Shown in pieces: positions 1,935 through 30,944 of a stretch of 35,056 nucleotides of DNA; position 1 is the stretch's first letter, and each line of letters begins with the position of its first letter. The notes beneath the pieces were generated by a model, which was not told where the DNA came from, did no database searches, and saw only the letters and a program-made list of their open reading frames with translations. Source of the DNA: a virus (taxonomy: Duplodnaviria > Heunggongvirae > Uroviricota > Caudoviricetes); IMG/VR virus record IMGVR_UViG_2734482782_000004. One strand, given 5' to 3'. Made by a program: the position numbers and the translations under genes.

Positions 1935-3098
1935 TCACTCATTATCTTCTGTTTCGTACTCCACATCAGAAAGCCTGACCTCAAGCTCCAAGGACGTCGT
2001 GAAGCCGCTATTATTCAGAAAATGTGTCACCTTAGTGATTGTCCAGTCCTGCTCGTCTATGACGCGCTTAAAGCCTGACACTTTAACCGGTGTTTCCGTG
2101 TAAATATCTGCCCGACCGGTAGCCAAGCTGATGGAGAACTCCGCAACGCCCCGTTGCAGTTTATCCCACTTCGCCTGAGCGGCGCGCATGGCCTGCGCTT
2201 TCGTGGCATATACCGTGGTCAGGGCAAAAACGTTATCAGCCTCACCGGCCATGTATTCACCTTCGCGCGCTTCCGGTACTTTAGGAGCTTTCTTCTGCGT
2301 GACTGGTTTCGCTTTCGGGTGCTCCAGTGCGCGCAGGTGTTTCTCTTTCTTTTTGCGTTTCAGTTTTACCTTCTGCTTTTGCGGCTTCGGGTCTTTGGTG
2401 TGTAACCACTTTGCCGTTACGCCGGTGTAAGCTCCACGGTCAGCAATCGCAAAATGATGACGGTCGCCGTCGCTGCGGGTGATGGTAATCTGCGGGATTT
2501 TTTTACCACTGGCCGTCACCCCCTGCCCCGCTTTGAGAAACAGCAGTTTTCCCATTTTTACCGACACCTCACCGCCGTTGCGTTCTGCAAGACGGGTCAG
2601 AAATTTCGCATCAGACTCCTGCGACTGGTCGATGTGCGGGATTTTAATTCCGGCCAGTGACGGAGCGACACTGGCTTCCAGCCTGTTACGGGAGGCTATC
2701 GCCTCAACAATCGCACCGAGCGTGGTGTCATGCCATGAGCCTTCACGGCGGGAATTGAGCGTCCCGCGAAAATCTGCACTCCGGGCGCGGATGGTGACCA
2801 CATCCGGTGCGCCCCGGTGTTCAACCTCATCAACGGTAAATTTCCCTTTGCATACCAGGGCAAAACCTTTCCAGCCGATATACACCGTCAGGACAGCGCC
2901 ACGAACCGGCAGCCCGACCTGCCCGTCGGCATCGTTCAGTTCAATATCAAGCTGGTCAGCCTCAAAGCCCCGGTTATCCGTCAGGGTCATGCTCATCAGA
3001 CGGTCGCTGATATTGCCGGTAATATCCCTGCTGTCGAGCATCAGCATGTAATCCGGCGTCAGCGTACTGCCTGCATCAAATGTCAGCGTATCCAGCAT
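1935..3098 (-). CDS. D: Tail protein gpD
   Basis: 387-aa ORF, same length and position as P2 D; tightly packed with U. Confidence 0.8.
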   Translation of the reverse strand: MLDTLTFDAGSTLTPDYMLMLDSRDITGNISDRLMSMTLTDNRGFEADQLDIELNDADGQVGLPVRGAVLTVYIGWKGFALVCKGKFTVDEVEHRGAPDVVTIRARSADFRGTLNSRREGSWHDTTLGAIVEAIASRNRLEASVAPSLAGIKIPHIDQSQESDAKFLTRLAERNGGEVSVKMGKLLFLKAGQGVTASGKKIPQITITRSDGDRHHFAIADRGAYTGVTAKWLHTKDPKPQKQKVKLKRKKKEKHLRALEHPKAKPVTQKKAPKVPEAREGEYMAGEADNVFALTTVYATKAQAMRAAQAKWDKLQRGVAEFSISLATGRADIYTETPVKVSGFKRVIDEQDWTITKVTHFLNNSGFTTSLELEVRLSDVEYETEDNE

Positions 3099-8602: not shown

Positions 8603-9355
8603 ATGACCAAGACAAATAGGCACAACTTTCCTCCAAGCGTTGTAGGTAAGGTAGCAGAGCGCGCTGCATATATTTGTAGCAATCCCTCTTGTCATAGGGT
8701 AACAATCGGCCCGGATCAATTGGCGGAAAATCTTTCTATCAAGACGGGTGAGGCGGCGCATATCTGCGCGGCGAGCCCTGGCGGACCGCGCTATGACATG
8801 TCTCAGTCAGAAACAGAGCGGAAGAGCATAAAAAATGCTATATGGTTGTGCGGAGCTTGTGCTGATTTAGTTGATAAGAATGGCGGTATGGGCTACCCCG
8901 CCGAGTATTTGCGAAAATGGAAACGTGACCACGAATCACTAATGAAGGAGTGCTTGGAGGGAGGAAAGAGGCTAATTTTTCAATTTCTATCGCATCGCCC
9001 AGACGAGAAAATTGCTCTGCGGGTGATCCATTTATTGGAAGACAAGAGTTCTCTTTATCTGCCATATGCTCAAGAGGATCCAGCACGAGTCTCGGATTCT
9101 TTGAAGGAGCTCCGACTCTCTCTTACGGCGATTCGCTCCGAGATTGCACCTGAGTCTCCGCTATCGTTGATCGTCGAGTCAATTGTCCGTGCGTGCCGAC
9201 ACTATATGAATTCAACGCCAGATCGGCCGGGCATTGATGAGCTTAACTTCTCCCTCGGCGCAGTTCGTAAGGTAGTAGGAATTAACATCGGAGAACTATT
9301 GAAACACTATGAAATCCAGGTGAGTCACGAATTGCATTCTATTATTCCTAAATGA
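8603..9355 (+). CDS. Cargo protein with N-terminal HNH-like nuclease motif and a C-terminal domain of unknown function (candidate defence effector)
   Basis: 250-aa ORF in AT-rich DNA at the Z/fun position; residues 25-93 read C-x4-C-H ... GEAAHICAASPGG ... N-x4-LCGAC ... DKN, resembling the HNH beta-beta-alpha-Me fold with a Cys4 zinc knuckle; own terminator at 9378..9412. Confidence 0.6.
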   Translation: MTKTNRHNFPPSVVGKVAERAAYICSNPSCHRVTIGPDQLAENLSIKTGEAAHICAASPGGPRYDMSQSETERKSIKNAIWLCGACADLVDKNGGMGYPAEYLRKWKRDHESLMKECLEGGKRLIFQFLSHRPDEKIALRVIHLLEDKSSLYLPYAQEDPARVSDSLKELRLSLTAIRSEIAPESPLSLIVESIVRACRHYMNSTPDRPGIDELNFSLGAVRKVVGINIGELLKHYEIQVSHELHSIIPK

Positions 9356-9377
9356 ATTTTAACCAATAACTCAAGTT

Positions 9378-9412
9378 GGCGAAGCCTGAAAAAGATGAGC
9401 TTCGCCATTTTT
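9378..9412 (+). terminator. Rho-independent terminator after the HNH-like gene
   Basis: Hairpin ggcgaagc-(13 nt)-gcttcgcc followed by attttt. Confidence 0.6.
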
Positions 9413-9516
9413 CTCGGACCTTGAGTAATTAGTGCAGACACAATAAGCATATTGTTTTCGAGTGCACGACGAACGTAGTTTTCGATACTTTGAGTATTAT
9501 AGCTTCAACTTTTTAC

Positions 9517-10302
9517 TTACATCAAAAATAACTTACAATATTTGTAAGTTGCTTTGTGTACGAAAATGCTTGCGTCAACTCTTGACATCGGATTTTTTAA
9601 TATCCCTCCGGAACTTCCCTTTCCATGTCTCGCAAGATACCCTAACAGTTCAAAGCTATTAGCAGTGCCCGTGAATCTGCTGATTTCCTTTTCATCAATA
9701 TTAAAAGCCATGCTAATTACTTTATCTCTCTGATATTTCTTGCCTTTATAAGTGTCGGGAAAATTTAGTATACCTTTCACATATTTATCATATACATATT
9801 CTCTAATTGTTTCCCACAAACGATAAAGATTAACCCAATCATCACCTAAGGCACACATACCTAAAACAACACGTAAGGATTCATGTTTAGATGATAAATT
9901 AATTAATCGTGAAAAATTATCAGCGCGAGGGTGTGGTTGCTGTATGTCATGGAAATTAAAGGGGTTTACCTGAGTTACATCCATTGATTTAAAGCCGCAT
10001 ATTTCCGAGTAATTAATGCCTTCACTTCCAGAAATAGAAAGAGGACCAAAAGATTGATATCTTTCAAAACCATAAAGAACGCTAAGTGCGCCGTTCATGA
10101 GCATCAACAAACCTTTTAACTTGGAAGCCAATTCATTTGGGTCGGATATGATATTCAAATGAGGAGATGAAAGTAAATGAATATCTGTTTGCCCTAAATC
10201 AGAGTCAGAATCATCATTTATAGAGAAATCATTCGACCAAACTCCACATAATCTTTTAACAAATCCTGTAGATGGAGTAAGTAAAAAACTATAATCGTAC
10301 AT
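9517..10302 (-). CDS. Hypothetical cargo protein, 261 aa, no recognisable motif
   Basis: Long ORF in strongly AT-rich DNA, where chance ORFs of this length are unlikely; ATG at 10300..10302 preceded by GAGGGA about 8 nt upstream; convergent with the HNH-like gene. Confidence 0.55.
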   Translation of the reverse strand: MYDYSFLLTPSTGFVKRLCGVWSNDFSINDDSDSDLGQTDIHLLSSPHLNIISDPNELASKLKGLLMLMNGALSVLYGFERYQSFGPLSISGSEGINYSEICGFKSMDVTQVNPFNFHDIQQPHPRADNFSRLINLSSKHESLRVVLGMCALGDDWVNLYRLWETIREYVYDKYVKGILNFPDTYKGKKYQRDKVISMAFNIDEKEISRFTGTANSFELLGYLARHGKGSSGGILKNPMSRVDASIFVHKATYKYCKLFLM

Positions 10303-10456
10303 AACTCAAATCCCTCTTTTTTATATCCTAAATGGAATACAAAAATTATTGTTTATTTGTTATGTTCAATATACTCACATAACCGAAAACTTTAACACGC
10401 TCATTCTAAGTGAACTAAATCTAAAGATATACCTTTGAAAACTGAAAACTCAATGC

Positions 10457-10487
10457 TGGCAACGTCCGCTCCTGGCACAAAGCGAAC
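10457..10487. repeat. 31-bp imperfect direct repeat, copy A (27/31 identical to copy B)
   Basis: tggcaacgtccgctcctggcacaaagcgaac here versus tggcaatgtctgctcctggcacagagcggac at 11820..11850. Confidence 0.7.
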
Positions 10488-10551
10488 ATTCCTTGACGTC
10501 CTGTCAGGGAAACCCACCTGGACGTTCAGGTGATTCTGTCGATTATAGTCA

Positions 10552-10577
10552 TAAAAAAGCCGCCCCGGAGGGACGGC
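10552..10577 (-). terminator. Strong rho-independent terminator of the 227-aa membrane-protein gene
   Basis: Minus-strand GC-rich hairpin gccgtccc-tcc-ggggcggc followed by TTTTTTAT, about 80 nt downstream of the stop at 10657. Confidence 0.7.
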
Positions 10578-10656
10578 TATAAACTCGCCAGTTAACAAGC
10601 TGATTTTACCGCTTACGCGGTTCTGTCGTTGCGGTGTTCGCTGACCCACTGCGCCT

Positions 10657-11340
10657 TTACAGTTTATCGCTTATGAATCCATGAGCCTTAAATGTCCTGA
10701 CAAAATCCTCATAGCGCGCAATCATCCCCCCCGATGTTTCACGCACATTTTGCTGATGAAAGCGGAAGTTTGCCTCCGATTCAACACTCTTACTCTTCCA
10801 GTCATGGGGAAGGCTTAGCATCACTGGCTTTCTGTTCGGGTAATCAACACTCATAAATGGTAGCGTACTATCTACGTATGCGGTCATAGCGTCCAAAAAA
10901 GCGTCTTTCGCACCATTCACTTCAGTATTGAATAACCGATACTTTTCACCGCTAAATTTTTCAGCTTTTTCAATGTTTAAGCAAACATCTTGCCGTATAC
11001 CGCTCAGGTAGCTCTGCTCAACCCATTGAGTAGTATCCTCATAAGGCAGCAATTCAAGGATCTGGTCGATTATCTTCAGATCATGTTCATCTTGCTTTTT
11101 TTTTACAGGGTCCTCAGTAGATTCATTGGATGTGTGGTAAACGTTGGTGGTCTGATTAATATCCCGCCCGGCCTGGTTCACATCACCCTCGGTTTTCTTT
11201 GCCTTCTGTTTTATGTTGTTTTGCTGTCTGATTCTATATGTAACACCGCCCCCAATACCAAACAGTGCCAGTACGCCGACTAATAAGCTAAGATAGGTAG
11301 CTGCGTCTGCACCAAAATGTGCATTAAGCCATTCAGTCAT
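10657..11340 (-). CDS. Cargo membrane-anchored protein, 227 aa (N-terminal TM helix, then soluble domain); candidate single-gene defence or abortive-infection effector
   Basis: ORF with hydrophobic segment AATYLSLLVGVLALFGIGGGV at residues about 12-33; own extended -10 promoter and own terminator; AAGGA ribosome-binding site. Confidence 0.6.
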   Translation of the reverse strand: MTEWLNAHFGADAATYLSLLVGVLALFGIGGGVTYRIRQQNNIKQKAKKTEGDVNQAGRDINQTTNVYHTSNESTEDPVKKKQDEHDLKIIDQILELLPYEDTTQWVEQSYLSGIRQDVCLNIEKAEKFSGEKYRLFNTEVNGAKDAFLDAMTAYVDSTLPFMSVDYPNRKPVMLSLPHDWKSKSVESEANFRFHQQNVRETSGGMIARYEDFVRTFKAHGFISDKL

Positions 11341-24563: not shown

Positions 24564-24736
24564 TGTCAGGAGTCCTGAATAGTGATTAGAGGAGTCACAT
24601 GTCGGCATCAGTTTCCCGACGATGCGCATCCTCCGCCATCAGTCCCGGATGGCTTATCACTGACACAACAGCACCTTAGCGAATCGCGGGGCGCGACTCA
24701 GTAGCCTTGCCGTGTATTCATCACGGCGAGGTATTC

Positions 24737-26509
24737 ATGACCATCACCACAGACACCACTCTTTTACACGACCCGCGTCGTCAGGCGGCGCTGCTGTACT
24801 GGCAGGGGTTTTCCGTGCCGCAGATTGCCGCCATGTTGCAGATGAAACGCCCGACGGTGCAGAGCTGGAAACAGCGCGACGGCTGGGACAGTGTTGCCCC
24901 CATCAGCCGTGTCGAAATGAGTCTGGAAGCGCGGCTGACCCAGCTCATCATCAAACCGCAGAAAACCGGCGGTGACTTCAAGGAAATTGACCTGCTCGGA
25001 CGCCAGATTGAACGACTGGCACGGGTCAACCGTTACAGTCAGACCGGCAACGAGGCAGACCTTAATCCGAACGTCGCTAACCGCAACAAAGGCGGGCGTC
25101 GCAAACCGAAAAAGAATTTTTTCAGCGACGAAGCCATCGAAAAGCTGGAGCAGATTTTCTTTGAGCAGTCTTTCGACTATCAGTTGCACTGGTATCGCGC
25201 CGGGCTTGAGCACCGCATCCGTGATATCCTGAAATCCCGCCAGATTGGCGCGACGTTTTATTTTTCCCGCGAGGCGCTGCTGCGTGCCCTGAAAACCGGT
25301 CATAACCAGATTTTTCTGTCGGCCAGTAAAACGCAGGCGTATGTGTTCCGCGAATACATCATCGCCTTTGCCCGGCTGGTTGACGTTGACCTGACCGGTG
25401 ACCCGATTGTCCTGGGCAATAACGGCGCAAAACTGATTTTTCTCGGCACCAACTCCAACACCGCGCAGAGCCATAACGGCGACCTGTACGTCGACGAGAT
25501 TTTCTGGATCCCGAATTTTCAGGTACTGCGTAAGGTGGCATCAGGTATGGCCTCACAGAGTCACCTGCGCTCGACCTATTTCTCCACCCCGTCCACGCTG
25601 GCGCACGACGCCTACCCGTTCTGGTCGGGTGAACTGTTCAACCGGGGACGCGCCAGCGCCGCCGAACGCGTGGAAATCGACGTCAGCCATAACGCCCTTG
25701 CCGGTGGTCTTCTCTGTGCGGACGGCCAGTGGCGGCAGATTGTCACCATTGAGGACGCACTGAAAGGCGGCTGCACGCTGTTCGACATTGAGCAGCTCAA
25801 ACGCGAAAACAGCGCCGACGATTTTAAAAACCTGTTCATGTGTGAATTTGTTGACGACAAGGCGTCGGTGTTCCCGTTCGAGGAGCTGCAACGCTGCATG
25901 GTCGACACGCTGGAAGAATGGGAAGACTATGCGCCGTTTGTCGCAAATCCGTTCGGCTCCCGCCCGGTCTGGATTGGTTACGACCCGTCACACCGTGGCG
26001 ACAGCGCCGGATGCGTGGTGCTGGCACCGCCGGTGGTGGCCGGTGGCAAATTCAGAATACTTGAGCGTCACCAGTGGAAAGGCATGGACTTTGCCACCCA
26101 GGCGGAATCCATCCGCAAACTCACCGAAAAATACAACGTCGAATACATCGGAATTGATGCCACCGGCCTCGGTGTCGGCGTGTTCCAGCTCGTGCGCTCG
26201 TTCTATCCCGCCGCGCGCGACATCCGCTACACGCCGGAAATGAAAACCGCAATGGTGCTCAAGGCAAAAGACGTCATCCGCCGTGGCTGTCTGGAATATG
26301 ACGTCAGCGCCACCGACATCACCAGCTCGTTTATGGCTATCCGCAAGACCATGACCAGCAGCGGACGCAGCGCCACGTATGAGGCCAGCCGCAGCGAGGA
26401 AGCCAGCCACGCCGACCTCGCCTGGGCGACCATGCACGCCCTGTTAAATGAGCCACTCACCGCCGGTATCAGCACCCCGCTGACATCCACCATTCTGGAG
26501 TTTTACTGA
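24737..26509 (+). CDS. P: Terminase large (ATPase) subunit gpP
   Basis: 590-aa product from the ATG at 24737 (MTITTDTTLLHDPRRQAALLYWQGF...), preceded by GCGAGG; the track ORF begins at an upstream TTG. Confidence 0.85.
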   Translation: MTITTDTTLLHDPRRQAALLYWQGFSVPQIAAMLQMKRPTVQSWKQRDGWDSVAPISRVEMSLEARLTQLIIKPQKTGGDFKEIDLLGRQIERLARVNRYSQTGNEADLNPNVANRNKGGRRKPKKNFFSDEAIEKLEQIFFEQSFDYQLHWYRAGLEHRIRDILKSRQIGATFYFSREALLRALKTGHNQIFLSASKTQAYVFREYIIAFARLVDVDLTGDPIVLGNNGAKLIFLGTNSNTAQSHNGDLYVDEIFWIPNFQVLRKVASGMASQSHLRSTYFSTPSTLAHDAYPFWSGELFNRGRASAAERVEIDVSHNALAGGLLCADGQWRQIVTIEDALKGGCTLFDIEQLKRENSADDFKNLFMCEFVDDKASVFPFEELQRCMVDTLEEWEDYAPFVANPFGSRPVWIGYDPSHRGDSAGCVVLAPPVVAGGKFRILERHQWKGMDFATQAESIRKLTEKYNVEYIGIDATGLGVGVFQLVRSFYPAARDIRYTPEMKTAMVLKAKDVIRRGCLEYDVSATDITSSFMAIRKTMTSSGRSATYEASRSEEASHADLAWATMHALLNEPLTAGISTPLTSTILEFY

Positions 26510-27543
26510 TGAACAAGAAAAAAGGGAAAACACCGCAACCTGCGGCAAAAAAAATGACCGCCAGCGCCCCGAAAATGGAGGCATTCACCTTTGGTGAGCC
26601 GGTGCCGGTACTCGACCGCCGTGACATTCTGGATTACGTCGAGTGTATCAGTAACGGCAGATGGTATGAGCCACCGGTCAGCTTTACCGGTCTGGCAAAA
26701 AGCCTGCGTGCTGCCGTGCATCACAGCTCACCGATTTACGTTAAACGCAATATTCTGGCCTCGACATTTATCCCGCATCCGTGGCTTTCCCAGCAGGATT
26801 TCAGCCGCTTTGTGCTGGATTTTCTGGTGTTCGGCAATGCGTTTCTGGAAAAGCGTTACAGCACCACCGGTAAGGTCATCAGACTGGAAACCTCACCGGC
26901 AAAATATACCCGCCGTGGCGTGGAGGAGGATGTTTACTGGTGGGTGCCGTCCTTCAACGAGCCGACAGCCTTCGCGCCCGGTTCCGTGTTTCACCTGCTG
27001 GAGCCGGATATTAATCAGGAGCTGTACGGCCTGCCGGAATATCTCAGCGCCCTTAACTCTGCCTGGCTGAATGAGTCGGCCACGCTGTTCCGCCGCAAGT
27101 ATTACGAAAATGGCGCTCATGCCGGATACATCATGTACGTTACCGATGCCGTGCAGGATCGCAACGATATCGAAATGCTTCGCGAAAACATGGTGAAGTC
27201 GAAAGGCCGCAACAACTTTAAAAACCTGTTTCTCTATGCCCCGCAGGGGAAAGCCGACGGCATTAAAATTATCCCGCTCAGTGAAGTGGCGACGAAGGAC
27301 GATTTTTTTAATATCAAAAAAGCCAGCGCCGCTGACCTGCTGGACGCACACCGCATCCCCTTTCAGTTGATGGGGGGCAAGCCGGAGAATGTCGGGTCGC
27401 TGGGTGATATTGAGAAAGTGGCAAAGGTCTTTGTCCGCAATGAGCTTATCCCGTTACAGGACAGGATCCGCGAGATAAACGGCTGGCTCGGTCAGGAGGT
27501 CATCCGCTTTAAAAACTACTCACTGGACACTGACAACGGCTGA
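26509..27543 (+). CDS. Q: Portal protein gpQ
   Basis: 344-aa ORF, P2 Q length; ATGA overlap with the P stop. Confidence 0.85.
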   Translation: MNKKKGKTPQPAAKKMTASAPKMEAFTFGEPVPVLDRRDILDYVECISNGRWYEPPVSFTGLAKSLRAAVHHSSPIYVKRNILASTFIPHPWLSQQDFSRFVLDFLVFGNAFLEKRYSTTGKVIRLETSPAKYTRRGVEEDVYWWVPSFNEPTAFAPGSVFHLLEPDINQELYGLPEYLSALNSAWLNESATLFRRKYYENGAHAGYIMYVTDAVQDRNDIEMLRENMVKSKGRNNFKNLFLYAPQGKADGIKIIPLSEVATKDDFFNIKKASAADLLDAHRIPFQLMGGKPENVGSLGDIEKVAKVFVRNELIPLQDRIREINGWLGQEVIRFKNYSLDTDNG

Positions 27544-27712: not shown

Positions 27713-27731
27713 GTGCTTTCCCCGCCTCGCC
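27713..27731. other. cos cohesive-end site (19 nt)
   Basis: gtgctttccccgcctcgcc is the reverse complement of the P2 cohesive end GGCGAGGCGGGGAAAGCAC as I recall it; it sits between Q and the replication genes, as expected for a prophage. Confidence 0.75.
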
Positions 27732-28015
27732 CGCCCGCTTCACAGGGCGGTTTTAATGCAGTTGCATAGATACTATGGATCCGCACCAGTCCTGACCGCA
27801 CGCAGCCTGAACGGACATCCCCAACGCATGCAAAAACATTCACTTGTTGCATGCATAGCTTTTTAAGTACGCCATACCGCAACTGTACATTTTTAAGCAA
27901 TTGGCAACTTTAAAAAATTTACATTGCTTTCAAGACCTTATCATCCGTAGTCTCTGTTTTTTACTTTGAGCTACATCAATAAAATCTCAAACATGTTTAA
28001 TGCAAAGCCCTTGTT

Positions 28016-28069
28016 ACACAACATAGAATGTATGTCTAGAAACAACGACATACTATATGTTGTGTTTTT
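28016..28069 (+). terminator. Long imperfect hairpin (10-bp outer plus 7-bp inner stem) followed by a T-tract; candidate terminator, attenuator or structured RNA
   Basis: acacaacata (28016..28025) pairs with tatgttgtgt (28056..28065); inner gtatgtc / gacatac; followed by TTTT. Confidence 0.4.
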
Positions 28070-28209
28070 CCGGCTCTCTGTTCGGTGATATGCCAAATCA
28101 CTTTGCGTTTAAACAGAGCATTATTTCAGGGCAAGACTTCGCTCAAAAGTCATTCCACCTAAGAAGCGCATATACCGGTGGAAGTTGCCCTCTACTTACA
28201 GGAGGCAAT

Positions 28210-28323
28210 ATGAAGAAATGCTATTACTGCATTCTCGTTCTGGCCCTCTTTGGCTATCCAAACGGTAGTCCGAGTGGTTTGTCAGTAAACGTCAGTAATA
28301 TCAATGTCAGCATTATGCTTTAA
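28210..28323 (+). CDS. Candidate small hydrophobic peptide (37 aa) in the tin/old-position cargo region
   Basis: ATG at 28210 preceded by consensus AGGAGG (28200..28205); product MKKCYYCILVLALFGYPNGSPSGLSVNVSNINVSIML; followed by a bidirectional terminator; flanked by 15-bp direct repeats. Confidence 0.35.
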   Translation: MKKCYYCILVLALFGYPNGSPSGLSVNVSNINVSIML

Positions 28324-28340
28324 TATGCTTCAAACAAAAA

Positions 28341-28365
28341 AACCACCTGCCAGGGTGGTTTTTTT
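28341..28365. terminator. Bidirectional rho-independent terminator
   Basis: Hairpin aaccacc-tgccag-ggtggtt with T-tract downstream and A-tract upstream. Confidence 0.65.
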
Positions 28366-28625
28366 GCGCCCATCATCAATACGATGAAAGACTGACAAGA
28401 CTTCGCTCAAGACGAATTATGCGTCGACATAAGGTTACCCGCAATGATTTTATTAGACTAAATGGATGGCCTTTTATGACCCGGATCAAACGGCTGTCCT
28501 TACCGACATGCTAGTCACTCAATAGCATTTAGCCTTCTAATTCAGCATGCTATTGACCTTCTGCTGCCCCATAACTGCTCCGCATAAGCCATTCAATGCC
28601 ATATCAAATTACGTTGTGTTTTTAC

Positions 28626-30944
28626 TCAAATGGGTAACGAGAACCCCGGCCACTCATCAGCGACCGGATATCTGAATTTTTTCCCGTCATAATTTACGGT
28701 TGCCCCACGCGCCAGCGCCTCAATCTCCCATCGCTGCGGCCTGATACCGTTCTGAGCAAGGTCAACGCGGATACGGGTAATTTGCGTTCGTTCCGACCGG
28801 GTCAGTCTGGCCGATGGCGCTATTTCATGTGGTTTTAACAGGCTTCCGTTTCTCTGCTGACGATTTGGTGTTCTCAGTCCGTGTTTTAATGCACCTCTGA
28901 GCGCCCTCACGACCTCTGGCTCATTCCATTCGATAACACCGTCATCAACCAGATTAAGCACGGCTGCGGCATGTTCAGAAGGTGTGGGAGCCGGTAACGA
29001 AGTATCACCACCGGTGAGCTTTCCACAGTTATTGACAGGACTCCGAGGCGCGGCGATGCCGCTTTTTAAAGTCAAAGGCTCAACGACCGGAACTTTCGGC
29101 ACAATGCGCCAGTCCGTCGTTCTGGTGATATGAATATGACGCGCGCCGAGATGCGGCGCGTAAATGCCGACCACCCTCTCGACCTCTTCCTCGTACTCGT
29201 TAACGTCATCCGACGGGCTACGGGCGACCCTGACAGTCTGACAATCGCGCGGGACATTTGCCCCACCCTGCGCGCTGATATACAACGCAAAATCACCACT
29301 GTCTGCGGCGGCGCGTGCAGCCTCGACGCGCTCGTCAAACTCATCAGCAATGCTGACGCCGCGCGGCAATTTGCGTAGTTCACGGTAAGCCCCCATTGTC
29401 GGCAGACCAACCGTTTTAAATTGCGGGATGCGCCACGTTGACGCCCATGCGGTAACAGCCGCAGCAGTGTCTTTCAGCGGCCTGCCGGTATCGTTATCGA
29501 GCTGACCATCCAGTGCATAGCCGTCGATGTTTTTTGAGATGTATTTCGCGATATACCCCGCAGCACCGCCCCGGTTAAGGTGTTTTGCCTGAAAACGGTT
29601 TCGCGCGGCTCCTCTTTCGTCGCCATCCTCTTTGAGCGCATAGCGACGCATGATTTCGATAATCTGGTTACGCTGGCGCGGATTACAAAAAAGCATCATA
29701 TGCCAGTGCGGCGTTCCGTCGTGGTGTGGCTCGACGACACGCAAACCGTAGACCTGTAAATCATTATCCTTGAATGCCGTGCGCATCAGGCTCCAGATAC
29801 GGCAGAGATAACGCTGCGCATCCTTTGGATTAAATGCCTCATCGTTCCAGCCGTGATTTAGCTGGACGGTTTTACTTTCGCCTTTTCTGACCTGACGTGT
29901 CGGGTGATACTTTGACGGCGCGGTCAGCGTGATAAACATCCCCACATCACCCTCTGCTGCGGCGTAACGCTCAATACCGGCAATGGTGTTCATCATCTCC
30001 ATCCGGCGAATTTCAGGATTAGAAATACTGCCCATCACCTTACTGATAAGGTCGATGCGCTCGCCGGTTTCCCTGTTTTCAAGGTCACACGATTTAAGAA
30101 ATTCCAGATTTGCCTGGCGGCGCGCACGCACATCACGAATGGCGTGTTTACTGGCATAAGGAGAACGGTCTTTATTGACCTCCCCGACAGCTATCAGTAA
30201 CGCTTCATGCCAGCGCATACGCTGGCCTTTAAGCTGATGAGTCCACCACTCATCGTTAAACAGACGGGCAATGGCAGAATATGCCTGCCTCGTGGTCATC
30301 TGTCCTTTACGGTATTTTTTCCAGTAGAGAGGGGAAATATTGAAAGCTCGTGCAGCGCCAGCAACATGACCATACAGGTGAGCCTGAGCCTCATCCATAA
30401 ACAGTGATTCTTTTTCGCCATGCGCATCCACCCAGGCATCGCTGAGTTCCTCATACATCATGAAAAGCTGTGATGAGATACGGGCGGCAAACTTTTTCAG
30501 CTCCTTGTCATTCATTCCAGGCAAACGCGCATAATGGTCACGCTCTGCCAGAAACAGCAACGACGCGTCGGTGTTCATTTCATGGCGCTGATTCACACGC
30601 TCAATGCGCGGCCATAAACGACGCTGAAAAGTGGATGTGAGGAAATAAAACCCGTGCACCGGGCTTTTATTGCGCCGGATGTAGTCATAGCGTGAAGTAA
30701 ACAGCGAGCGCAAAAAATAAGGCAGGCGGTTAATCGTGGATAAAACACCTTGCACCTGACGCATCTCGTCACGTGTAAGAGGTCTTTCGCGCCCGACAGC
30801 CTCGCGTGGCGCGTTCCATGCATAAGCACCGGTAAACGTCTTACCGGTGCCTGCGGTAAATGCTGACGGAGGGACAAAACGCCCGGAGGCTTTAACGGCC
30901 ATATGAGCCAAAAGCCTCTGAACAACGCTTGCTGAGTTGCTCAA
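28626..30944 (-). CDS. A: Replication initiation protein gpA (rolling-circle nickase)
   Basis: 772-aa ORF, P2 A size class (761 aa by memory) and position; exact start uncertain. Confidence 0.8.
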   Translation of the reverse strand: MSNSASVVQRLLAHMAVKASGRFVPPSAFTAGTGKTFTGAYAWNAPREAVGRERPLTRDEMRQVQGVLSTINRLPYFLRSLFTSRYDYIRRNKSPVHGFYFLTSTFQRRLWPRIERVNQRHEMNTDASLLFLAERDHYARLPGMNDKELKKFAARISSQLFMMYEELSDAWVDAHGEKESLFMDEAQAHLYGHVAGAARAFNISPLYWKKYRKGQMTTRQAYSAIARLFNDEWWTHQLKGQRMRWHEALLIAVGEVNKDRSPYASKHAIRDVRARRQANLEFLKSCDLENRETGERIDLISKVMGSISNPEIRRMEMMNTIAGIERYAAAEGDVGMFITLTAPSKYHPTRQVRKGESKTVQLNHGWNDEAFNPKDAQRYLCRIWSLMRTAFKDNDLQVYGLRVVEPHHDGTPHWHMMLFCNPRQRNQIIEIMRRYALKEDGDERGAARNRFQAKHLNRGGAAGYIAKYISKNIDGYALDGQLDNDTGRPLKDTAAAVTAWASTWRIPQFKTVGLPTMGAYRELRKLPRGVSIADEFDERVEAARAAADSGDFALYISAQGGANVPRDCQTVRVARSPSDDVNEYEEEVERVVGIYAPHLGARHIHITRTTDWRIVPKVPVVEPLTLKSGIAAPRSPVNNCGKLTGGDTSLPAPTPSEHAAAVLNLVDDGVIEWNEPEVVRALRGALKHGLRTPNRQQRNGSLLKPHEIAPSARLTRSERTQITRIRVDLAQNGIRPQRWEIEALARGATVNYDGKKFRYPVADEWPGFSLPI

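Follow-up and report, generated by a model that had tools for sequence, protein, structure and literature searches.

The 35,056-nucleotide (nt) stretch of DNA analysed here (IMG/VR record IMGVR_UViG_2734482782_000004; hereafter the window) is a P2-like prophage of Escherichia coli. Between its cohesive-end site (cos) and replication gene A there is a conserved module of ~550 bp (window 27908-28455), predicted to be transcribed into two RNAs, that is very probably an antisense-regulated small-protein module. In all copies the order of its parts is two boxes that resemble FNR-binding sites, a -10 element, a stem-loop, a leader, one copy of a 15-bp direct repeat, a GGAGG Shine-Dalgarno (SD) sequence, a short open reading frame (ORF), a terminator, the second copy of the repeat and a minus-strand promoter, so placed that both 15-mers are internal. 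What the comparison of sequences establishes is the conservation of these parts, their co-variation and the coding constraint on the ORF; the transcripts, repression, toxicity of the peptide and control by FNR are predicted. As a leading hypothesis, a full explanation along type I toxin-antitoxin lines, toxicity included, appears likely. The elements of the module, by window position, are as follows.

27908-27922, plus strand: left edge of the module, motif TTAAAAAATTTACAT, placed by alignments and common to the E. coli nrdD upstream region
27966-27979, plus strand: FNR-box-like site 2, TTGAGctacATCAA, 9/10 to TTGAT-N4-ATCAA and identical to the E. coli nrdD upstream site
27997-28010, plus strand: FNR-box-like site 1, TTAATgcaaAGCCC, centred 20 nt before the -10 in all lineages
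28024-28029, plus strand: predicted -10, TAGAAT, assigned by nrdDG homology (TAAAAT in relatives and in nrdDG)
28036-28365, plus strand: predicted peptide mRNA of ~330 nt, start at ~28036 (+/- 3), placed from promoter and terminator
28038-28069, plus strand: 5′-terminal stem-loop of the mRNA
28076-28118, plus strand: leader stem CUCUGUU/AACAGAG around the hairpin GGUGAU/AUCAC, from RNAalifold
28130-28146, plus strand: small-RNA target in the leader; repeat copy 1 is 28132-28146 and pairing extends to 28130 with one G·U
28153-28183, plus strand: leader hairpin UUCCACC...GGUGGAA with the conserved loop AGAAGCGCA
28186-28208, plus strand: predicted local hairpin that sequesters the SD, UUGCCCUCU...AGGAGGCAA
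28210-28323, plus strand: 37-codon ORF, MKKCYYCILVLALFGYPNGSPSGLSVNVSNINVSIML, from the ORF listing, conservation and the ratio of nonsynonymous to synonymous substitution rates (dN/dS)
28336-28365, both strands: bidirectional intrinsic terminator A7-CCACC-TGCCAG-GGTGG-T7, common to both RNAs and nearly invariant in the lineages
28334-28409, minus strand: predicted antisense small RNA of ~76 nt, with a 5′ seed, a middle hairpin (~28367-28392) and the terminator
28396-28410, minus strand: repeat copy 2, whose complement is the 5′ seed of the small RNA
28416-28444, minus strand: small-RNA promoter, with -10 CATAAT (28421-28416), a 17-nt spacer and -35 TTGCGG (28444-28439)

A 766-bp block of the window (27860-28625) is present in 158 of 5426 complete E. 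coli genomes, at one place per genome (median 1), and its copies fall into a clade of at least 99% identity (81 genomes) and one of ~86% (69 genomes); RefSeq has no annotation at the block in these carriers. E. coli W/KO11FL (NC_017660.1, 2624458-2625223) and an O121 STEC are among the carriers, as are K. pneumoniae strains with plasmids of the pKPN-262 type. A sensitive DNA search of plasmids with window 27915-28456 returned 423 records that match 97% of its length at 71-73% identity; 394 of them are from Klebsiella and 351 are conjugative plasmids of the IncFIB/IncFII type. No feature is listed at the module on the plasmid records, the gene tables of which are incomplete. A diverged copy, with a peptide that is 62% identical, was located in the Citrobacter freundii chromosome by a peptide-pattern scan, scans of metagenomes and viral sequences added two lineages (L052 and L201), and the most distant form is carried by Salmonella IncF plasmids. 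Searching plasmids by tblastn with the most divergent peptide gave no additional lineage, and scanning the viral collection with one 14-mer copy of the repeat returned mostly chance matches and was uninformative. Homology among all copies begins at ~27908 (AAATTTACAT) and ends at ~28455 (TTTATTAG), beyond which the flanks are unrelated. Phage, plasmid and chromosome copies share a further ~225 bp on the upstream side of repeat 1 and ~45 bp on the downstream side of repeat 2; as the homology passes both repeats, the mobile unit is the ~550-bp module and not the segment bounded by the 15-mers. Partial copies also occur. In the Citrobacter plasmid pRHBSTW-00935_2 (L094 1958-2035), and also in L093, a truncated upstream part of the module, from AAATTTACAT to the distal FNR box, lies beside parAG. 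What comes next is, in L094, another small ORF, METLTKVIQTLKALIVLLELIRWFF, that is DinQ/ZorO-like in appearance and, in L093, an insertion sequence element; plasmid copies of dinQ with zor-like leaders have been reported (PMC11264685). Logan ERR1623625 (L200 500-715) contains what is left of a prophage, with the small ORF joined at codon 16 to sequence upstream of the genes for the C repressor and the integrase, the deletion having taken out gene A through cox.

The 15-mer CAAGACTTCGCTCAA occurs exactly, as originally noted, at 28132-28146 and 28396-28410, 264 bp apart, flanking the ORF and terminator. No other 15-mer in the window is repeated exactly, in direct orientation, within 1 kb. With ~0.03 such pairs expected by chance in 35 kb, and two chance 14-mer pairs present elsewhere, the repeat pair by itself is only modestly beyond chance, and its significance comes from the relatives, in which the copies are conserved and co-vary. 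As the two copies are read in opposite directions, the 5′ end of the predicted small RNA would be complementary to the mRNA leader. The minus-strand hexamers TTGCG(G/A/T) and CATAAT are constant, with a spacing of 17 nt (18 in one lineage), while the spacer between them diverges freely (CGTCGACATAAGGTTAC in the window, CTTTCTCAGATCGGAAC in the Citrobacter copy and CTTTGTCCATCATAGAC in the Klebsiella one), as would be expected if the promoter works. The end of repeat copy 2 is 5-8 nt from this -10 in all lineages, so that the transcript would start at the repeat complement. The small RNA has a predicted folding energy of -29.5 kcal/mol (z = -4.0), and in 8/8 lineages tested the best site for its seed on the whole mRNA is repeat 1 (-29 to -37 kcal/mol), at a distance from the ATG of 63 nt in the window and 63-66 nt across lineages.

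The changes seen between lineages are consistent with this pairing. In the Salmonella plasmid both copies have GGTAAGGCTTTGCTCA where GGCAAGACTTCGCTCA is present elsewhere, three matched substitutions, and the Salmonella small RNA is predicted to pair with its own leader at -29.8 kcal/mol compared with -13 to -21 kcal/mol for leaders of other lineages. Four kinds of difference between the copies exist, over five lineages, within the 16-17-nt core (in the window, L004/L006, L052 and, twice, L201) and all have G in copy 1 and A in copy 2, a combination that gives G·U in the predicted duplex but a C·A mismatch in the opposite orientation. In the middle hairpin of the small RNA, 8/10 pairs are altered on both sides, with 94% of cells paired versus 48-63% when the partner is slid, a covariation score reached by 0/500 shuffles, and in 9/9 lineages its minus-strand form is more stable than the complementary one. 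Together, the evidence from repeats and hairpin fixes the pairing constraint and the strands involved, for transcripts that are themselves predicted. A structural switch, in which binding of the small RNA would free UUGCCC to sequester the SD, was considered and rejected: when the target was blocked in partition-function folding of 8 lineages, neither the SD nor the AUG became consistently more or less accessible, and the SD is predicted to be largely paired with the target free or blocked. An Rfam search returned only sub-threshold, terminator-driven matches (RNAI, 25 bits with gathering score 47; OrzO-P, 23.7 with 60), and the zor-orz, istR, ryfA(timP) and sok models gave no match at the gathering score.

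The original prediction was that the 15-mers bound a mini-cassette, or mark where recombination between them had removed a larger cargo. They do lie on either side of the ORF and terminator, at a known hotspot of cargo exchange (PMC9122126), but this reading is already contradicted and now highly improbable: homology reaches well past both repeats, the copies co-vary with differences that are exclusively G·U-compatible, and their spacing is 264-270 bp in every copy recovered. Nothing larger was present between the same 15-mers in the ~30 viral and 14 metagenome contigs, or in the plasmid and E. coli copies, that were examined. Nor do the 15-mers belong to a common intergenic repeat family, given the single location of the block per genome. 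Where cargo has been added it is outside the repeats; part of the 86% clade and two phage records have three extra genes between cos and the block, not inside it, so that swappable cargo enters on the cos side and the block beside gene A stays. It is also very improbable that the repeats are operators for a DNA-binding protein rather than RNA-pairing elements. A pair of identical, conserved sites separated by 264 bp could loop DNA, and matched changes in both would also fit a co-evolving regulator, but the module moves among unrelated contexts with no linked regulator gene, the G/A differences between copies are neutral only for RNA pairing in one orientation, and copy 2 is located exactly at the predicted start of the minus-strand RNA. 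In the 86% clade the three-gene cargo (L004, L005, L001) consists of hypothetical genes of 942 and 600 bp and a gene for an ImmA/IrrE metallopeptidase. A 486-bp ORF of matching size is positioned directly upstream of the Citrobacter copy of the module.

The predicted peptide mRNA folds better than its shuffles (z = -4.2) and has a leader of 174 nt in the window and 161-181 nt across lineages. The 5′ stem-loop is at the same position in 8/8 lineages, formed in the Salmonella plasmid copy by unrelated sequence (AGCCCCUAC..GUAGGGGCU), and its presence in every lineage supports the predicted mRNA start. Compensatory changes also occur within the leader, on both sides of the 28076-28118 stem in L085 and L038, and also in L201, and as an A-U to G-C change between the two E. 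coli clades in the 28153-28183 hairpin. An A/U-rich single-stranded stretch is immediately 5′ of the repeat-1 target in all lineages. The SD is predicted to be largely sequestered, with an unpaired probability of 0.03-0.38 in all lineages, by a CCUC-type stretch just upstream. The terminator that follows the ORF had been noted as bidirectional, and the A7-stem-T7 does fold on both strands; it is strong on both by RNAfold, though a simple terminator scan missed it. A candidate plus-strand promoter at 28392-28420 (CTGACA-17-AATTAT) was rejected, as its -35 is unconserved in relatives and there is nothing conserved downstream.

Upstream of the mRNA, window 27941-28008 is 88% identical over 68 nt (E = 3e-12) to the E. 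coli treC-nrdD intergenic region. The alignment to nrdD extends from TTAAAAAATTTACAT to past the -10, giving ~100-150 bp of detectable homology. The TTAAAAAATTTACAT motif, ~105 nt upstream of the -10, is present in every module copy as well as upstream of E. coli nrdD (L008 2968-2985). The FNR sites of nrdDG are centred at -64.5 and -33.5 relative to the transcription start, positions with which the boxes of the module agree. In the module, the upstream FNR-like box matches the consensus at 8-9/10 positions across lineages and is centred 51 nt before the -10 in all of them, and the proximal box is 9/10 (TTGATgcaaATCAC) in the plasmid and Citrobacter copies, 8/10 in the 86% clade and 6/10 in the window. 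By these sequence criteria the 31-bp spacing of the boxes and their distance to the -10 are nrdDG-like in all 8 lineages tested. The module thus has in common with the E. coli nrdDG promoter both FNR boxes at equal spacing, the -10 and the upstream AAATTTACAT motif, but would drive the 37-codon ORF rather than nrdD. The nrdDG promoter is activated by FNR and repressed by NrdR, with NrdR box 1 overlapping one FNR site (PMC2892513). Members of the NrdR regulon have two 16-bp boxes ~31-32 bp apart, with a 15-bp linker (PMC12176259, from which the box sequences were taken). Box 1 is good in the copies from Citrobacter, metagenomes and Salmonella (TCACTACATATAGAAC is an example) and degenerate in the window and phage lineages. 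A box-2-like sequence, ACATACTATATGTTGT, ~40 bp from box 1 and so at a spacing that is not canonical, coincides with the mRNA 5′ stem-loop, doubling as that structure, and is missing in the Klebsiella and Salmonella copies. Anaerobic, FNR-dependent transcription of the peptide mRNA is plausible and, from these sequences, rather probable; control by NrdR is doubtful, because the boxes are inconsistently kept.

The ORF begins at ATG 28210, four bases downstream of the SD AGGAGG (28200-28205), as in the original reading of a 37-residue hydrophobic peptide. Both frame and length are kept across lineages: there are 37 codons in 8/9 lineages and 39 in the Salmonella form, with the SD and its spacing retained. 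Compared pairwise, the forms from E. coli, Citrobacter, metagenomes and Klebsiella have NG86 dN/dS values of 0.1-0.4, and variable sites are distributed 15/12/24 over the three codon positions. By these measures the 37-codon ORF is a real gene under purifying selection. An 88-codon in-frame extension from ATG 28057 was rejected, as a TAG interrupts it in the 86% clade. Conserved in the peptide are the basic character of its N-terminus, an invariant Cys with (I/L)(L/I/F)(V/L/I)L(A/T)L after it, a linker rich in Pro, Gly and Ser, and a tail in which polar residues alternate with hydrophobic ones, as exemplified by GLSVNVSNINVSIML, GWSVNVSHINVNISL and SWMVYLNHISLTVQF. With its N-terminal hydrophobic stretch, CYYCILVLALFGY, it has the size and character generic to type I toxins (<60 residues, hydrophobic). 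There is no match to it in Pfam or NCBIfam at E <= 10, or in PADLOC, and the single match in PHROGs is at chance level (E = 0.34). Only 3 protein clusters among 5.8 billion, all with near-identical sequences, contain the peptide, because the ORF is rarely called; one of the three (P0003) is a prophage deletion remnant.

We propose that the rightward, nrdDG-homologous promoter would direct synthesis of a ~330-nt mRNA with, in order, the 5′ stem-loop, the structured leader, the hairpin-held SD, the 37-codon ORF and the terminator. A leftward sigma-70 promoter, just past the terminator, would generate the ~76-nt small RNA that ends at the same terminator. The DNA direct repeats, read oppositely, would make the first 15-17 nt of the small RNA complementary to the leader, 63 nt upstream of the ATG. 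Its most likely role is to prevent the peptide from being made; by analogy with tisB/IstR-1 and zorO/OrzO, the small RNA would cover a region where ribosomes stand by or enter, would cause the duplex to be cleaved, or both. Most probably the peptide acts on membranes and does harm in excess, and the module could then stabilise the plasmid or prophage that carries it, or serve as a conditional stress or defence effector. A small membrane toxin is our leading idea for the peptide, one that we favour with some reserve by analogy with known systems; the argument for toxicity derives from the architecture and from carriage by plasmids and prophages.

Several features weigh against this proposal. 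The proximal FNR-like box is degenerate in the lineage of the window and the resemblance to NrdR boxes is patchy, so that nrdDG-like regulation is perhaps only partly retained. The -35 of the small-RNA promoter has 3/6 consensus bases, and both promoters are predicted. The matched substitutions in the repeats could, in principle, result from gene conversion between the copies, although this would still imply selection for identity. With its target 63 nt from the ATG, the mode by which the small RNA would repress is not evident from modelling the sequence. The hydrophobic stretch of the peptide, at only ~13 residues (C4-Y16), is short for a membrane-spanning helix, and the AlphaFold model from the single sequence is of low confidence (pLDDT 60), with residues 3-14 forming one helix and another that is only weak. 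Such a peptide might instead be benign, a small membrane or envelope 'moron' protein made anaerobically, with the same two-RNA layout and the small RNA as an ordinary regulator. An FNR-type promoter does suggest condition-specific expression over constant tight silencing, and the short hydrophobic segment, Pro/Gly/Ser linker and alternating tail are unlike the classic helical type I toxins and match no known toxin family. We nevertheless regard this as unlikely, since the layout, structured leader, sequestered SD, 5′ stem-loop, antisense RNA and mobile carriage match those of toxin-antitoxin modules, and small, unannotated, hydrophobic proteins repressed by a small RNA have the profile that defines type I toxins (PMC2887945). 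That the small RNA is instead the main product, regulating host or phage genes in trans, with the peptide mRNA a sponge or by-product, has very little to recommend it. The RNA has the single-stranded 5′ seed, hairpin and U-rich terminator of trans-acting small RNAs, and phage early transcripts that read through from gene A would have the seed as well, but the ORF is under purifying selection, its SD and length are conserved, and the seed co-varies with the linked leader and not with a fixed host target.

As a toxin-antitoxin-like module, its closest parallel in layout is par of the Enterococcus faecalis plasmid pAD1 (fst RNA I/RNA II; the Fst/Ldr family), in which convergent promoters, a shared bidirectional terminator and oppositely read direct repeats provide complementarity between toxin mRNA and antitoxin RNA (PMC7472228). 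The toxin mRNA of par also has a 5′ stem-loop and a sequestered SD, and par is likewise carried by plasmids and phages. There are two pairs of repeats in par (DRa and DRb) whereas the module has one, and pairing in par extends over the translation start whereas the target in the module ends 63-66 nt upstream of the ATG. The Fst toxin has a PXXXG helix and a charged tail, the module peptide has no Fst-like sequence (no Pfam match at E <= 10) and a polar, beta-like tail, and par hosts are Gram-positive whereas those of the module are Enterobacteriaceae. The tisB/istR-1, zorO/orzO, shoB/ohsC and dinQ/agrB systems resemble the module in their 15-20 nt of complementarity within a long structured leader, far upstream of the ribosome-binding site, in their small hydrophobic ORFs, and in having toxin promoters controlled by stress or a global regulator. 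LexA controls tisB and dinQ; the regulator of the module would be FNR. These pairs are divergently encoded whereas the genes of the module converge on one terminator, and they have no sequence relation to the module, the OrzO-P match being over the terminator only. Pairing of a small-RNA 5′ end within a long toxin leader is described for timP, where the 5′ end of TimR pairs with 18 nt of the mRNA leader (PMC7667032), and, for tisB/IstR-1, zorO/OrzO and timP/TimR, in that report together with a second (PMC3919570). The Salmonella timP/timR system (ryfA locus) specifies a peptide of ~38 residues with N-terminal signal-like hydrophobic residues; it is divergent and chromosomal whereas the module is convergent and mobile, and ryfA (RF00126) has no Rfam match in the module at E <= 1. 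With hok/sok the module would share carriage by large conjugative plasmids and prophages and a small membrane peptide under an antisense RNA, but Sok overlaps the mok/hok leader in cis, the module has no mok-like coupling ORF, and there is no sequence or Rfam similarity between them.

The surroundings of the module place it at a recognised position in P2-like genomes, bordered as follows.

24707-26509, plus strand, rightward: terminase gene P
26509-27543, plus strand, rightward: portal gene Q
27713-27731: cos cohesive-end sequence GTGCTTTCCCCGCCTCGCC, the left border of the hotspot
28456-28625: P2-lineage-specific spacer from the module to the gene A stop, without a conserved ORF and missing from plasmid copies
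28626-30902 (to 30944 with an upstream TTG start), minus strand, leftward: replication gene A

We take the 19-nt sequence at 27713-27731 to be cos from its identity with that of P2. Window base 27732 aligns with the terminal base of linear P2-like phage records (H4-H8; in H4, query 1 corresponds to 32314/32314), which places the module in the cos-to-A interval, the tin/old position of P2. The gap to the gene A stop at 28626 was originally estimated at ~0.9 kb and too small for tin and old genes; it measures 894 bp, and no tin/old-sized ORF is present in the ORF list and no gene is annotated there by RefSeq. The locus is thus the same as that of tin and old between gpQ/cos and gpA, but in this prophage it has neither of them. 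This locus is a recognised hotspot for anti-phage cargo in P2-like phages (PMC9122126), and gene-less P2/P4 hotspots are, according to a recent survey, extremely rare (PMC13586616). The hotspot in the window appears gene-less only because the 37-codon gene and the small RNA are unannotated and below annotation thresholds.

Many E. coli chromosomes designated complete in RefSeq, including NZ_CP062865.1 (L004), NZ_CP168035.1 and NZ_LR883965.1, begin at P2 gene A, with the module at 2278-3043; it looks as though the phage replication gene, rather than dnaA, was used to rotate these assemblies. The neighbourhood of cyaR is an integration area of P2-family elements, and the prophage in the window adjoins cyaR, with the CyaR/RyeE small RNA at 1445-1530 on the plus strand (Rfam RF00112, 100.7 bits). 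Between the tail genes, at 8603-11340, the second P2 hotspot (the Z/fun position) contains three ORFs of 250, 261 and 227 residues with no Pfam match. The N-terminus encoded by the first (8603-9355, plus strand) matches PADLOC endonuclease-effector models and the candidate system PDC-M68A (E = 4e-24), and these ORFs are probably the real defence cargo of this prophage.

In the literature on type I toxin-antitoxin systems with FNR, P2 prophages and Klebsiella plasmids we found no description of the module, and the peptide, RNA and defence libraries have no entry describing it. It is possible, though on balance improbable, that the module represents a new enterobacterial type I family in which a par-like layout has captured an FNR-responsive promoter of the nrdDG type, perhaps also responsive to NrdR, to form a conditional addiction or abortive-infection module in the P2 cos-proximal hotspot and on resistance and virulence plasmids of Klebsiella. 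If so, anaerobiosis, and perhaps nucleotide status, would govern the supply of toxin mRNA. The module would extend the par-type architecture, so far typical of Gram-positive Fst systems, to Enterobacteriaceae with an unrelated peptide, and a toxin gene with an FNR-type promoter would give type I systems a new kind of input. At the P2 locus, a defence hotspot that annotation would call gene-less has a 37-codon gene and a predicted small RNA that pipelines have missed. More than 400 records of large plasmids, mostly conjugative and mostly from clinical Klebsiella, also hold the module unannotated; should it be an addiction module, it has a bearing on how resistance and virulence plasmids persist.

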